Shown piece after piece: positions 24,787-35,020 of a stretch of DNA of 64,000 nucleotides. Every line of letters starts with the position of its first letter. Position 1 is the stretch's first letter. The notes under the pieces are model-generated. The model made no database searches. It was not told where the DNA came from and was given only the letters and a program-made list of their open reading frames with translations. The translations under genes and the position numbers were made by a program. Source of the stretch: Escherichia coli (lineage in GTDB: Bacteria > Pseudomonadota > Gammaproteobacteria > Enterobacterales > Enterobacteriaceae); the NCBI RefSeq assembly GCF_003018255.1, contig NZ_CP027440.1. One strand, 5' to 3'.

Positions 24787-25107
24787 TTAGCGGAAACTGA
24801 CTGTTTCACCCGCTTGCTGCGTTGCCGCCTGTTCCAGCAAATCCCAGAAGGTTTCGCCGCTACGATCGCAAATCCACTCATCGCCTTTCAGATCAAAATG
24901 GTAGCCGCCCTGTTTGGTTGCCAGCCATACCTGGTGCAGCGGTTCCTGGCGGTTGATAATGATTTTGCTCCCGTTTTCAAAGGTAATGGTCAGTACACCG
25001 CCGTTGATTTCGCAGTCGATATCGCTATCGCCATCCCAGTCGTCCAGACGCTCTTCAATGGTCAGCCACAGTTGATCAGCCAGGCGATGAAATTCACTGT
25101 CGTTCAT
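24787..25107 (-). CDS. cyaY: iron-sulfur cluster assembly protein CyaY (frataxin homolog)
   Basis: 106 aa [33 protein letters not shown] acidic-ridge frataxin fold; convergent with cyaA. Confidence 0.9.
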
Positions 25108-25154
25108 TGTTGTATCCTGTTTTTAAGTGATGGCGGCAGTATAGCGGCATGGGG

Positions 25155-27212
25155 TCAGAGCTTCAAAGTTTGCTCAATGTCTGGTGTTTTGTGGCACTCT
25201 TCCTCCGTCGTCAAGATGATGATGTCATCATTGGATGAAAACATGTTCTGATCCAGATTACGTGTCCTGGCCGGACAGGGCGATGCGGTTCGATAAAGTT
25301 GGCTACCGATCCAGGTATAAACATAGCGATTGTCATAAGCGAAACGTTCGGTGGTTTTCAATGGTCCATCAATAGCAAAAATTTGAATATCATCGCGTAA
25401 ACGGGAAGAGCGCATAAAGTAACCATGGCCTTTCCCGGCGTTAATCCGTTGTTTCAGGAAAGGTGCAGAAGAGTCGAGCGTTATTATTTCCAGGGTGTCT
25501 TCACCAAAAGGAGACAATTTCGCAATGTACAGATGATTTTTGTACTGCGCGACACGATCGGTGATGGGATGAAATGCTTTCGGGTCAATATCGGGGAGTT
25601 TCTCCCATTGACTCCATTGCTGGTCTGTAGAGCGAAGCTTACGCCAGCTAACATCGGTTTCGCCGACGAGAAAAGAGCCTTCGCCATCAGAATATTGAGC
25701 AATGTTAACGGATGAGTTATAGGGGATTCCCGTTGGAATAAACGCACCATCCTCAAGAAGTCTGCCGTCAAGCTCACCACTACGGTAGTTTGCCCAATAG
25801 CCATATCCTGAATCTTTGGTTTTCCATTTCACCCGCACGGCTTTGGTATTGGGAGTTGGGTAGCGCCAAAGCTGTGAGCCATCGAATGCGTAAACATAAC
25901 GATCGTCGTGTGCATACCATTTCTTGTAATGGGGGCTATCGCTAAGGTGAGCCTCATGCTCGTCAGGAACACGATAATCCATCAGGATAAGCGGCCCGGA
26001 AGAATCGAATACCTGGAGGCCATCTTCTTCTTCACCATCAGCTGGTAATTTGGTCAATAAATAGCCGTGAGTTCTTCCCGCGTTAAAGCGTTTATCTATC
26101 ACCAAACCAGGATTATCCAGTGTGACGATATTTAGCCTATTTTCGCCAAATCCCGTTTTTTTGATGGTGTACAGCTTGTCCTGATACTGAGCAACGGTAT
26201 TACTAAGAGGATGAAATTGTTCTGGATCGAGGCCGGGTAGGACTTCTTGCTGGCATTCTGGCCCTTTGCGCCATGAAACAGAGTGTTCCTGCAAAGTGAA
26301 CGCCGCGCAGCTATTTGCCCTATCTTTGTCCAGATTTCCCTGATTCAGCACCTTCCGGTGCAGGCCGCTTTTATCTCGCCAGGTTAATAACGAACCGGGC
26401 ATCCAGCGTACGACAGTAAATGTCTCTGGGTCGGCTTTAAGCTGTTCGCCATTGATTATGATTTTGGTCCGTGTACGGGCTAACGTATCCCAGGGGCCAA
26501 ATGGTACGGCAACGCAGGGGTTAAACGTGGTGGAAAACTTTCCTCGCTGATCCCAGGACTTCTGCGCCAGCACACGGAAACTCTCGGGGTCAGCGAGGCG
26601 ATGTCCATCGACATATAAGAAATTAGCGTCACGTAATATCAGCCCCAGAAAGTCAGGTTTCCAGGGGGAACGGAATTTCACCTGATGCAGCGTTTTAATA
26701 TCTAGACTATTTTCTCCGCCATTGTCATCGGTGCGCGTGCCTTCAAAATAGAGACTGTGTTTATCTGCGGCAAAATCACCCCATGCCTTGAACGAGGCGA
26801 CATCGACGGGAGGTTTGTCTGGCGGGTTTTGCACAACTTCACCCGCGTAGAGGATATAGCGACCATCGCTATGCCAGGAGTAATGAGGATACCAGGCCTG
26901 TGCGCCTTCATAGAGGTAGTCGGTTGTCAGATCAGTCAGAGGAGGTACTTTATCCCATTTGTCTAGTGTTGTCGGGTCTATTAATAAATTGGGTAAACGG
27001 CGCAAACTTTTGTAATTCACGTCAGGAAGAGAAAGATTTGTTTCTTTATAAGGGCGCAGGTATACCACGCCTTTTCCCTGTTTCTGGTAAATATTATGTT
27101 CAGGCGCGGAAAGCCGACATCCCCATGCCGACGATAAAAACAACGAACAAGACAACAAACAAACCACATTGCGAAAGTGCATAAAGCCATCCTGGCGCGA
27201 GGTGTTGATCAC
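25155..27212 (-). CDS. secreted DKNYY-repeat protein (accessory)
   Basis: 685 aa; ORF track start at 27212 is GTG, a more likely ATG with SD lies at 27182 (MHFRNVVCLLSCSLFLSSAWGC signal peptide); repeated motifs DxxYVY/DKxYY (DGRYILYAGE, DKHSLYFEG, DANFLYVDG, DDRYVYAFDG, YKNHLYIAK, YDNRYVYTWIG) characteristic of the DKNYY family; not part of the K-12 cyaY-yifL interval as I recall it. Confidence 0.6.
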   Translation of the reverse strand: MINTSRQDGFMHFRNVVCLLSCSLFLSSAWGCRLSAPEHNIYQKQGKGVVYLRPYKETNLSLPDVNYKSLRRLPNLLIDPTTLDKWDKVPPLTDLTTDYLYEGAQAWYPHYSWHSDGRYILYAGEVVQNPPDKPPVDVASFKAWGDFAADKHSLYFEGTRTDDNGGENSLDIKTLHQVKFRSPWKPDFLGLILRDANFLYVDGHRLADPESFRVLAQKSWDQRGKFSTTFNPCVAVPFGPWDTLARTRTKIIINGEQLKADPETFTVVRWMPGSLLTWRDKSGLHRKVLNQGNLDKDRANSCAAFTLQEHSVSWRKGPECQQEVLPGLDPEQFHPLSNTVAQYQDKLYTIKKTGFGENRLNIVTLDNPGLVIDKRFNAGRTHGYLLTKLPADGEEEDGLQVFDSSGPLILMDYRVPDEHEAHLSDSPHYKKWYAHDDRYVYAFDGSQLWRYPTPNTKAVRVKWKTKDSGYGYWANYRSGELDGRLLEDGAFIPTGIPYNSSVNIAQYSDGEGSFLVGETDVSWRKLRSTDQQWSQWEKLPDIDPKAFHPITDRVAQYKNHLYIAKLSPFGEDTLEIITLDSSAPFLKQRINAGKGHGYFMRSSRLRDDIQIFAIDGPLKTTERFAYDNRYVYTWIGSQLYRTASPCPARTRNLDQNMFSSNDDIIILTTEEECHKTPDIEQTLKL

Positions 27213-27291
27213 GAAACTGCTAGCAGAACATAAATCCTCACAAGTAAGCGTAACTCTCGCAGCAAATCGTCACTTTTCAGAATCCATAAAG
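27122..27291. repeat. direct repeat copy 1 (5' end and upstream region of DKNYY gene)
   Basis: About 170 bp that recur at 28208-28370 with high similarity (e.g. GAACAAGACAACAAACAAACCACATTGCGA...GCATAAAGCCATCCTGGCGCGAGGTG...CACGAAACT...ACTTTTCAGA). Confidence 0.85.
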
Positions 27292-27553
27292 GTCATCGCT
27301 ATTTTCTGATAGTTGCTGGAATAAACGTGATATTTTCATTCACGATATAAACACAATCCCGGAACTGCCCCATAGTACGGCTAATAGCATAAAAATATTC
27401 CGGATTGACCCCTGGAAGGGAGGCAATGTGGGATTCCGCCCCCCGTTGCCTTCTTTATTGTCTTTCACGAGTTGTACCCAGGTTCCACCACGGGTATCTA
27501 ACATTCGCCACATTATTACGCTTTCTGCCGAACGTGATTTTTATAGAAATCTA

Positions 27554-28108
27554 TCAATTCATTTTCCCTGTACCATAAAGTTTATCCTTCACATCCTGCC
27601 GAACGCGGGTCTTGTACCCCCCGTTGTGAAGATCTTCATACGGAGAAAAAGAATCTTTACTCCACCCCAGCAACACTTTATCGCCAGGCATAAAATGCAC
27701 GTGCAGGTAATTTTCTCCCCATTCTCTTTTTGGGAGAGGTAACGTCATATTGCGTTTCTCCAGACGCATTCCAGCATTATACTGTGTACGAGTAGTACTT
27801 AATGTCCATATAACCTCTGCCGTATCCCCACTGACATCACCGCAACAGGTGATTGAACCGCCACCATTCGCAAAAGCATTCGCGCCCGCCACGCCGTTAA
27901 CACTGAATCCCAGTATCGGACGGTCAATTTCACTGTGGATTTCCAGTATCACTCCACCTCTTGGTCCTCCCCATACTGCCTGTCCTATATTCCACAACAC
28001 GACCAGTACTGGAACGACAATTAACGTCCGCCATACCCAGCGCCCCCAGCGGGCATAACCGCGCGTAAGCTTTTGGTCAAATTTTTCCAGTTGGGTAAAT
28101 AGCCCCAT
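27554..28108 (-). CDS. DUF3304-like membrane-anchored protein (accessory)
   Basis: 184 aa; N-terminal TM helix (WRTLIVVPVLVVLWNIGQAVWG); Gly-rich core (GFSVNGVAGANAFANGGGSITCCGDVSG) resembling DUF3304 proteins; family assignment from memory. Confidence 0.5.
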   Translation of the reverse strand: MGLFTQLEKFDQKLTRGYARWGRWVWRTLIVVPVLVVLWNIGQAVWGGPRGGVILEIHSEIDRPILGFSVNGVAGANAFANGGGSITCCGDVSGDTAEVIWTLSTTRTQYNAGMRLEKRNMTLPLPKREWGENYLHVHFMPGDKVLLGWSKDSFSPYEDLHNGGYKTRVRQDVKDKLYGTGKMN

Positions 28109-28207
28109 CGATTTTATTCCCTCTTCTCACCTGGTTGGCAAAGTTGCACGTCACTGGCGACTAAGGTCAGACAACGAAATTTCGTGGTACGCCACTCTCT
28201 TAAAAGT

Positions 28208-28370
28208 CCCATGCAGGCGATAAGAACAAGACAACAAACAAACCACATTGCGATAGTGCATAAAGCCATCCTGGCGCGAGGTGCCGATCACGAAACTACC
28301 AGCAAAACATAAATCGCCACGTGTAAGCGTTATACTCGCAGCATTTCCTCACTTTTCAGACTTCATAAAG
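28208..28370. repeat. direct repeat copy 2 with frameshifted signal-peptide remnant
   Basis: Second copy of the 27122-27291 repeat; contains a 20-codon remnant ORF on the minus strand (MHYRNVVCLLSCSYRLHGTF-stop) created by a 7-bp deletion relative to copy 1. Confidence 0.8.
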
Positions 28371-28449
28371 AGTCGCTAAACGCTTGCTTTTACGCCTTCT
28401 CCTGCGATGATAGAAAGCAGAAAGCGATGAACTTTACAGGCAATCCATA

Positions 28450-28653
28450 ATGAAAAACGTGTTTAAGGCACTCACTGTATTACTTACTCTCTTCAGCCTG
28501 ACGGGCTGCGGTCTGAAAGGTCCGCTCTATTTCCCGCCTGCAGATAAAAACGCACCGCCGCCGACCAAACCGGTAGAGATGCAAACGCAATCCACGGTGC
28601 CGGATAAAAACGACCGCGCCACTGGCGATGGTCCATCCCAGGTGAATTACTAA
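28450..28653 (+). CDS. yifL: small lipoprotein YifL
   Basis: 67 aa; lipobox LTGC in the signal peptide (MKNVFKALTVLLTLFSLTGCG); immediately upstream of dapF. Confidence 0.85.
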   Translation: MKNVFKALTVLLTLFSLTGCGLKGPLYFPPADKNAPPPTKPVEMQTQSTVPDKNDRATGDGPSQVNY

Positions 28654-28689
28654 AAGTCAGTTTCTGTACCCGCGTGATTGGAGTAAATG

Positions 28690-29514
28690 ATGCAGTTCTC
28701 GAAAATGCATGGCCTTGGCAACGATTTTATGGTCGTCGACGCGGTAACGCAGAATGTCTTTTTTTCACCGGAGCTGATTCGTCGCCTGGCGGATCGGCAC
28801 CTGGGGGTAGGGTTTGACCAGCTGCTGGTGGTTGAGCCGCCGTATGATCCTGAACTGGATTTTCACTATCGCATTTTCAATGCTGATGGCAGTGAAGTGG
28901 CGCAGTGCGGCAACGGTGCGCGCTGCTTTGCCCGTTTTGTGCGCCTGAAAGGGCTGACTAATAAGCGCGATATCCGCGTCAGCACCGCCAACGGGCGGAT
29001 GGTTCTGACCGTCACCGATGATGATCTGGTCCGCGTAAATATGGGCGAACCCAACTTCGAACCTTCCGCCGTGCCGTTTCGCGCTAACAAAGCGGAAAAG
29101 ACCTATATTATGCGCGCCGCCGAGCAGACAATCTTATGCGGCGTGGTGTCGATGGGAAATCCGCATTGCGTGATTCAGGTCGATGATGTCGATACCGCGG
29201 CGGTAGAAACGCTTGGTCCTGTTCTGGAAAGCCACGAACGTTTCCCGGAGCGCGCCAATATCGGTTTTATGCAAGTGGTTAAGCGCGAGCATATTCGTTT
29301 ACGCGTTTATGAGCGTGGGGCAGGAGAAACCCAGGCCTGCGGCAGCGGCGCGTGTGCGGCGGTTGCAGTAGGGATTCAGCAAGGTTTGCTGGCCGAAGAA
29401 GTACGCGTGGAACTCCCCGGCGGTCGTCTTGATATCGCCTGGAAAGGTCCGGGTCACCCGTTATATATGACTGGCCCGGCGGTACATGTCTACGACGGAT
29501 TTATTCATCTATGA
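28690..29514 (+). CDS. dapF: diaminopimelate epimerase
   Basis: 274 aa from ATG 28690 ([17 protein letters not shown]); catalytic Cys motifs (GNGARC, ACGSGA). Confidence 0.9.
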
Positions 29515-34117: not shown

Positions 34118-35020
34118 TTACTTAGCGCACTTCTTCACATCAATATTCCAGTCAGCACCAGACGCAACCTGATGTTTCTGCGCAAAATTATCCATATTCA
34201 GCGCCACGGAAACATTCAATAAGCTGTTCAGATACACCATCGGCTGGCCTTCCGGCACATCGCCGAAGCTTGCGACATACGGCATTTTCCCTGCGTATTT
34301 TTGCTGGGAACCTTCGGAAATGGTCACACACAACGTGTCGTTGAGTTTGATTCCTGCCTGTTTCAGCAACTCGTCGCTGATATTGCTCCAGACGTTGCCG
34401 TACTGAATATCGAGAATCGGGATATTGCCCTTCACTTCACCTTTTGTTGCTTTTGCTTTCTGATAAGAAAGTTCGACAACTTTTGCAGGAAGCTCTGGCC
34501 CCACCTGTTCGAACGTAATCGCTCCGGAAGCCAGACGCGCACCAGTGTAGGCATATACATCGCGACCATGGAAGGTATATGACTTTTCAGAACCTTTCAG
34601 GCGGTTAGCTTTTTCGTCGATTTCCCGGACGCTATCAATACCCAGAGTTTGTGCCACCAAAGTGAGCGTACCGTTATCTGGTGAAACGAAGTATTGACCG
34701 TTTTTGGTTTTCAGCACTACCGATTTACGGTCAGTGCCTACGCCCGGATCGACCACGCTAACAAACACCGAACCTTGCGGCCAGTAACTGGCAGTCTGAT
34801 ACAGGCGATAAGCGCCTTCCCAGATGTTATACGGTGGAATTTCGTGTGTTAAATCAAAGATTTTAAGATTATGGTCAACGCCGAATGCGACCCCTTTCAT
34901 CGCCGAGACGGCACCATCTTTCAGGCTAAAATCCGTTTGTAAAATCAAAGCGTTATCCGCATAAGCGGATGATGACCCCAGACAGGTTAATAAAAATAAT
35001 GTTGCGAGCGTTTTTTTCAT
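34118..35020 (-). CDS. secreted SAM hydroxide adenosyltransferase-like protein (DUF62 family, accessory)
   Basis: 300 aa; signal peptide MKKTLATLFLLTCLGSSSAYA; N-terminal LQTDFSLKDGAVSAMKGV and C-terminal ILDIQYGNVWSNI motifs resembling the DUF62 fold (fluorinase/chlorinase-related); I do not recall a gene between uvrD and yigE in K-12. Confidence 0.55.
   Translation of the reverse strand: MKKTLATLFLLTCLGSSSAYADNALILQTDFSLKDGAVSAMKGVAFGVDHNLKIFDLTHEIPPYNIWEGAYRLYQTASYWPQGSVFVSVVDPGVGTDRKSVVLKTKNGQYFVSPDNGTLTLVAQTLGIDSVREIDEKANRLKGSEKSYTFHGRDVYAYTGARLASGAITFEQVGPELPAKVVELSYQKAKATKGEVKGNIPILDIQYGNVWSNISDELLKQAGIKLNDTLCVTISEGSQQKYAGKMPYVASFGDVPEGQPMVYLNSLLNVSVALNMDNFAQKHQVASGADWNIDVKKCAK

Follow-up and report, generated by a model that had tools for sequence, protein, structure and literature searches.

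A probable orphan type VI secretion immunity gene captured within an eroding DKNYY-like gene array between cyaY and lptM of Escherichia coli

We analysed a 64,000-nt stretch of Escherichia coli DNA (hereafter the window; NCBI RefSeq assembly GCF_003018255.1, contig NZ_CP027440.1), concentrating on the gap between cyaY and lptM (also called yifL) at positions 25108–28449. This gap is 3,342 bp long, versus 462 bp in K-12 MG1655, and the list of open reading frames (ORFs) places two intact minus-strand ORFs inside it: 25155–27212, which encodes a large exported protein resembling the DKNYY family, and 27554–28108, which encodes a 184-aa protein of the DUF3304 type. It is likely that the interval is a resident, eroding array of DKNYY-like genes which captured a fragment of a type VI secretion system (T6SS), and that the tli1 gene on this fragment acts as an orphan immunity gene. 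A preliminary description of this DNA, made from its letters alone, had correctly reported the expansion relative to K-12 and its exact boundaries, and had read the interval as an accessory island. It missed a 147-nt direct repeat and several gene relics, which together reveal the origin of the locus.

The 184-aa protein is best understood through its counterparts in T6SS clusters. The E. coli strains 4848 and N50 carry a 184-aa DUF3304 gene in the order tssH-vgrG-DUF4123-DUF3304-Tle1-x-vgrG, and the window protein is identical to these cluster versions at 173/184 aa (strain 4848) and 178/184 aa (N50). The same vgrG-DUF4123-DUF3304-Tle1-vgrG order is found in the ST131 module, whose tli1 has 67% amino-acid identity to the orphan, and on a Salmonella contig, where the module has two tandem immunities. 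The ST131-type gene was considered as the source of the orphan and was superseded by the far closer 4848 and N50 modules. DUF3304 is the Tli1 immunity domain directed against Tle1 T6SS phospholipases, and its gene typically lies upstream of the effector gene (PMC13133936, PMC5649205, PMC6691524). On sequence grounds, we identify the 184-aa protein as an orphan Tli1-family T6SS immunity protein.

Profile searches place it at the edge of its family. Pfam DUF3304 (PF11745) matches residues 63–145 over model positions 6–95 of 97 (E 5.8e-4, 20.7 bits), and most homologues at 56–69% identity carry PF11745. The NCBIfam model Tli1a_fam (NF053804) gives E 8.5e-4 and 19.4 bits versus a cut-off of 110, with the T6SS-cluster copy at 23.1 bits. 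Both scores are far under the cut-off, so the protein is a distant relative and not a member of the Pseudomonas aeruginosa Tli1a equivalog. The preliminary description was thus right to call it a DUF3304 single-pass membrane protein (one transmembrane helix is predicted), and right to link this family to T6SS effectors. Its view that neither protein has an assigned function stands for the large protein and falls for DUF3304, for which the literature cited above describes the Tli1 immunity domain.

Orphan tli1 sits within a continuous block of T6SS-cluster sequence. Window positions 27436–28183 align to the clusters as one piece, with 91% (4848) and 93.7% (N50) nucleotide identity, and take in the final 75 nt of the gene for the DUF4123 adaptor, all of tli1, 40 nt of spacer and tle1 codons 1–26. 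The tle1 relic, recognised by its nucleotide match (27436–27513, minus strand), reads MWRMLDTRGGTWVQLVKDNKEGNGG in the window versus MWGMLDTGGGIRAQLAEDNKVGNCG at the Tle1 N-terminus. On the other side of the gene, 28109–28209 (minus strand) holds the Shine-Dalgarno sequence of tli1 and two relics of a Tla1-type DUF4123 adaptor, found by nucleotide and peptide matches. One is HEISLSDLSRQ* (about 28151–28186), versus NEISLSDLSRQ* at the DUF4123 C-terminus, and the other is LLREWRTTK (28180–28209), versus LLREWRTMK in an internal DUF4123 segment; a second match to the T6SS clusters, 27 nt long, lies at 28180–28206. The 26 tle1 codons are all that stands beside the orphan of its cognate effector, as tblastn with both Tle1 types found nothing else in the interval.

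The T6SS block is bordered by pieces of a third DKNYY-like gene, paralogue X. Downstream of the block, the relic SLPGVNPEYFYAISRTMGQFRDCVYIV (27335–27442, minus strand) is an internal piece of X: tblastn matches it to family members with E-values down to 2e-8 at family residues ~307–342, and its closest relative is the fourth paralogue of Klebsiella spallanzanii, more than any E. coli copy. Upstream of the block, 28224–28370 (minus strand) comprises the 5′ region and first ~23 codons of X, and the stretch 28291–28223 has tblastn matches to DKNYY-like family N-termini of up to 96% over 23 aa. Because the 5′ end of X lies on one side and its internal relic on the other, these matches indicate that the T6SS fragment replaced the middle of X, i.e., roughly codons 23–306. 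This replacement explains the direct repeat, in which copy 2 (28224–28370) is the 5′ end of X and copy 1 (27145–27291, minus strand) is the upstream region and first codons, encoding the signal peptide, of the intact large gene; the two 147-nt copies are 88% identical. The capture involved ~775 bp of a VgrG-adaptor(DUF4123)-Tli1(DUF3304)-Tle1 module, leaving an intact tli1 between adaptor and tle1 relics with the upstream region of a DKNYY-like paralogue in front. Repeat copy 2 is accordingly placed as a candidate promoter for tli1.

The orphan is common in the species and its matching effector is rare. Using 5,426 complete E. coli genomes, we found tli1 at a nucleotide identity of at least 90% in 1,163, and a query spanning the capture junction (27300–27620, at least 80% covered) in 1,079. 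The matching tle1 occurs in 67 genomes, in many of them as two fragments or frameshifted and in two with an IS2 insertion; the window strain is absent from the 60 of these 67 carriers that were listed. The ST131-type tle1-tli1 module is in 512 genomes, any related tle1 in 620, and more than one copy of this DUF3304 subfamily in at most 73. The exact 3.3-kb interval structure of the window is shared by 141. The sequence NZ_CP116067.1, taken as that of the window strain, has a second match to the DUF3304 gene outside the window, plus three whole-interval matches, whose positions could not be located.

Orphan tli1 is under strong purifying selection: among orphan copies, synonymous changes outnumber non-synonymous ones by 11:2 and 8:1, and the ratio of non-synonymous to synonymous rates (dN/dS) is 0.04–0.08. 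A comparison with the cluster copy of strain 4848 gives a dN/dS of 0.15, and the amino-acid changes are concentrated at residues 104–112. Whereas the orphan is conserved, the weapon is decaying: the N50-type tle1, whose tli1 is closest to the orphan, is present as two separate ORFs in many genomes, and an IS2 element interrupts it in strains 61 and 64.

An alternative is that tli1 is a decaying, functionless leftover of a degraded T6SS module which happens to be intact. Truncated relics of both neighbours do flank it, its matching effector is scarce and frequently frameshifted or IS-disrupted, and no promoter was recognised, all of which such a leftover would show. However, chance survival sits poorly with a 555-nt ORF that 1,079 genomes have kept whole at one and the same junction, with the synonymous excess and low dN/dS given above, with a Shine-Dalgarno sequence that is still strong, and with the fact that both flanking relics have decayed and tli1 has not. 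We therefore regard the leftover as unlikely.

Several points nonetheless weigh against an active orphan immunity. With a marginal Pfam match and an NCBIfam score far short of the Tli1a cut-off, the family assignment depends mainly on the near-identical T6SS-cluster copy, itself a putative immunity gene. A consensus scan found no promoter or terminator where one would be relevant. Few E. coli have the cognate effector gene, and it is often a pseudogene, making a present-day benefit uncertain. Phylogeny also confounds the observation that orphan and effector almost exclude each other in their distribution.

The predicted topology of the 184-aa protein would suit an action against Tle1. A transmembrane helix is predicted from sequence at ~24–46, with six Lys/Arg residues on its N-terminal side, and an AlphaFold2 (AF2) model (pLDDT 71) has a helix at 3–46 followed by eight beta strands. 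The N-terminal transmembrane anchor is conserved throughout the enterobacterial DUF3304 subfamily. These predictions suggest that the protein is oriented N-in and that its beta domain lies in the periplasm, the compartment in which Tle1 works. The helix would anchor the protein in the inner membrane and display the beta domain in the periplasm, and this domain would bind and neutralise Tle1-family phospholipases injected by T6SS-armed rival enterobacteria. By neutralising injected Tle1, tli1 would serve as an orphan immunity gene, shielding a cell that lacks the weapon.

The cluster of changes at residues 104–112 (window 27773–27799) falls in a loop that is dimorphic across Enterobacterales, being either STTRAQYNAG-like or DITHEQYLKG-like. 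The orphan has exactly the N50-type loop, and the tandem immunities of the Salmonella module differ from each other here. Judging from these sequences, the loop is a candidate determinant of Tle1 specificity.

The other intact gene of the interval encodes a predicted exported, DKNYY-like beta-repeat protein. RefSeq starts it at GTG 27212 (685 aa). The more likely start is ATG 27182 (25155–27182, minus strand), which has AGGA 7 nt upstream and gives 675 aa, the length of the database cluster. The preliminary description had assigned the protein to the DKNYY family with a signal peptide, and had named failed profile searches among the outcomes which would refute its family assignments. Pfam searches with the 685- and 675-aa versions found no match to DKNYY (PF13644) or to any other family, even at E ≤ 10, and NCBIfam, PADLOC and PHROGs likewise gave no match of any kind. 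Its relatives place it differently. An exhaustive search of 1.84 billion representatives (E ≤ 1e-3) returned only 88 relatives, mostly from Enterobacterales. Among 36 aligned homologues, 10 match PF13644 at E ≤ 1e-3 and 19 at E ≤ 0.1 (best 4.5e-22); homologue P0084 has such a match, and RefSeq labels the E. coli paralogues "DKNYY family protein". As the relatives match PF13644 and the window protein itself does not, it is a divergent DKNYY branch by homology. Hence the signal peptide and the kinship with the family hold, and a direct match to the family profile does not.

Within the large protein, D-x-x-x-[LVF]-Y-x-x-G motifs occur at residues 150, 195, 436 and 627. Its signal peptide has a lipobox-like AWGC followed by R; many family members have a lipobox-like A-x-[AG]-C and others have SPase-I-type signals. 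The AWGC-R sequence suggests that the 675-aa protein is probably a lipoprotein. The N-terminal hydrophobic segments noticed in the preliminary description are thus real in both proteins, being a signal peptide in the large one and a transmembrane helix in the small one. Residues 1–494 resemble, at 78% identity, the 502-aa product encoded in those E. coli alleles that have two genes, and residues 509–685 resemble the C-terminal domain of the second, 437-aa paralogue (49%), so the protein consists of one complete ~495-aa unit plus the C-terminal domain of a second paralogue. The AF2 model is confident and all-beta (pLDDT 84.9), and a structure comparison found no solved structure resembling it. 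Our literature search found no function for DKNYY, no mention of PF13644 and no link between cyaY and T6SS immunity. Our best guess is that the 675-aa protein is a periplasm-facing or surface binding scaffold, functionally unlinked to tli1.

Calling the interval an accessory island proved wrong for this gene, which is ancestral at the lptM-cyaY site and not acquired. This follows from same-site orthologues in sister species and from a synonymous rate (dS) equal to that of cyaY. The gene has orthologues at the lptM-cyaY position of E. albertii (86–87%), Salmonella (67–68%) and K. spallanzanii, and dS against E. albertii is 0.386 for the large gene versus 0.39 for cyaY, with dN/dS of 0.20. The E. 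albertii order is lptM, a 674-aa gene and cyaY, without tli1, and the window has this arrangement plus a single 1,079-nt unit. The K-12 allele is without this unit and has an internal deletion equivalent to window 25227–27027, i.e., K-12 is the derived, deleted state. The resident array is thus an old, vertically inherited and variable set of DKNYY-like genes in Escherichia, Salmonella and some Klebsiella, with exported all-beta repeat proteins, probably outer-membrane lipoproteins, as its products. The window strain has kept one intact 675-aa gene, and K-12 and most E. coli only its deleted stump.

We also considered whether the 685-aa ORF arose recently, in this strain only, when the 502-aa and 437-aa genes seen in other E. 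coli were fused. It did not, because E. albertii and Salmonella have the fused architecture at the same site. Fused (~675 aa) and two-gene (~500 + ~437 aa) alleles both occur in E. coli and in E. albertii, which suggests long-lived or recombining structural alleles. K. spallanzanii has a much larger variant of this variable site: four tandem DKNYY-like paralogues (495, 425, 439 and 463 aa) adjoin lptM and are followed, before cyaY, by genes for a GntR/aminotransferase protein, an amidohydrolase and two major facilitator superfamily (MFS) transporters. Salmonella enterica has, before cyaY, a 129-aa ORF that overlaps its 670-aa DKNYY-like gene at the end; this ORF has a weak DUF3021 match, no NCBIfam match and no counterpart in the window.

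This variability invites another explanation, in which DKNYY-like proteins are conflict proteins (e.g., decoys or immunities in the periplasm or at the surface, or variable phage or colicin receptors) and the locus is a defence site that recruits such genes. Divergent paralogues in tandem arrays, presence/absence polymorphism with frequent pseudogenisation, the two architectures found in both E. coli and E. albertii, and the capture of a T6SS immunity gene at the same site would all fit, as would the pace of evolution: dN against E. albertii is 0.075 for the large gene versus 0.004 for the flanking genes. However, the other genomic contexts examined had no toxin, T6SS or defence gene association, PADLOC gave no match, 430–675 aa is large for an immunity protein, and a dN/dS of 0.2 does not indicate overall diversifying selection. 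On balance this explanation is improbable. We give a similarly small chance to its broader form, in which lptM-cyaY is a dedicated interbacterial-conflict locus whose DKNYY-like lipoproteins are unrecognised large protective proteins of the periplasm or surface, or variable receptors, and where divergent tandem paralogues may be kept with trans-species structural polymorphism. If that were true, the capture of tli1 there would reflect shared regulation or selection and not accident.

The weakest explanation, in essence that of the preliminary description, is that the two genes are one functional system co-acquired as an island, with, for example, a secreted DKNYY effector or surface protein and a DUF3304 partner or immunity. 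The genes share a strand, the 341 nt that separate them contain no terminator-like site, and both products are predicted to be envelope-targeted, but the idea is very hard to sustain: E. albertii and Salmonella have a 670–675-aa gene at the site without DUF3304, T6SS clusters have the DUF3304 gene without any DKNYY gene, and distant DKNYY-like homologues lie in housekeeping contexts. Moreover, the spacer is made up of relics of genes together with a 5′ region in duplicate, mobility genes are absent, and dS is no different from the flanking value. A functional pairing of the two genes was likewise rejected, since each is found elsewhere without the other, as was a general T6SS link for DKNYY-like genes, given the housekeeping contexts in Leminorella and two metagenomic contigs.

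The flanks of the interval are the core genes cyaY (24787–25107, minus strand) and lptM (28450–28653, plus strand), both supported by ORF and RefSeq annotation, and dapF follows lptM in the ORF list (28687–29514, plus strand). As the preliminary description had also stated, no mobility genes accompany the two ORFs: the ORFs and RefSeq annotation of the cyaY-lptM interval include no mobility gene, tRNA target site or flanking insertion repeat. The nearby xerC is a core gene, and the interval's sole direct repeat consists of a resident gene's 5′ end in two copies. An Rfam scan of the interval found no RNA family. E. coli DETEC-S792 is 100% identical to the window, and RefSeq annotates the two genes there as "hypothetical protein" and "DUF3304 domain-containing protein".

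Two observations concern annotation nearby. K-12 "yzcX" (b3808; positions 851–1336 of the MG1655 locus) lies on the opposite strand to cyaY, overlaps it and extends into the stump of the deleted DKNYY-like gene, its equivalent being window ~24900–25230 plus the deletion scar. It looks like an annotation artefact of this scar and not a gene. Farther along the window, just downstream of uvrD, is a 300-aa gene (34118–35020, minus strand) that RefSeq calls "SAM hydrolase/SAM-dependent halogenase family protein". Only 2,413 of the 5,426 genomes have this gene, which makes it a second accessory gene in an otherwise core region.

Compared with studied Tli1/DUF3304 immunities (P. aeruginosa Tli1a, Klebsiella pneumoniae Tli1KP, Vibrio cholerae TliV1a and Burkholderia thailandensis Tli1), the orphan has the DUF3304 domain in common, and its domain is predicted to be all-beta and periplasm-facing. 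The parent copy, almost identical in sequence, precedes a DUF2235/Tle1 gene and adjoins a DUF4123 adaptor and vgrG, a gene order also described for Aux5 clusters of K. pneumoniae and V. cholerae (PMC5649205, PMC6691524). Unlike those immunities, the orphan has an N-terminal transmembrane helix and not a lipoprotein signal (this is true of the whole enterobacterial subfamily), and it stands alone at a housekeeping locus with adaptor and effector relics.

It also resembles the orphan T6SS immunities described in V. cholerae, in acquired interbacterial defence arrays of Bacteroidales and in E. coli (PMC6730261), in that the immunity is kept without the effector, and in that tli1 is nearly identical to another strain's paired immunity and far commoner than the effector. 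In contrast to those, tli1 is outside any T6SS cluster and outside any array that is mobile or associated with a recombinase. It is instead one gene on its own, fixed at a single chromosomal junction where it interrupts an unrelated gene and apparently makes use of that gene's upstream region. The Tle1/Tli1 pair of the Sci-1 system of enteroaggregative E. coli (EAEC; EC042_4534/4535) involves the same species, the same Tle1 phospholipase class and a periplasmic immunity. EAEC Tli1 is, however, a DUF2931 outer-membrane lipoprotein encoded downstream of tle1, whose product binds VgrG directly (bioRxiv 10.1101/2024.03.05.583533; PMC6730261), and it is non-homologous to the orphan DUF3304 protein. 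For the large protein, the comparison is with the uncharacterised DKNYY family (PF13644), which it resembles in its PF13644-matching homologues, its motifs and its exported, lipoprotein-like character, and from which it differs in having no PF13644 match of its own.

Orphan T6SS immunities are therefore a known kind, and since our literature search found no description of an orphan tli1 at cyaY-lptM, this one is a newly documented case. It is a natural example of an immunity gene which has outlived and outspread its weapon, at a housekeeping locus where its origin can be read in relics. A constrained, stand-alone putative Tle1 antidote is present in about one fifth of complete E. coli genomes, ~16 times as many as have the matching toxin. 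In K-12, the spacer between cyaY and lptM can now be read as what a gene deletion left behind. The analysis further draws attention to a small family of exported enterobacterial proteins with a confidently predicted fold and no solved structural relative. Finally, orphan tli1 would be a simple, testable determinant of strain resistance to Tle1-armed lineages, and ST131 has a related Tle1.

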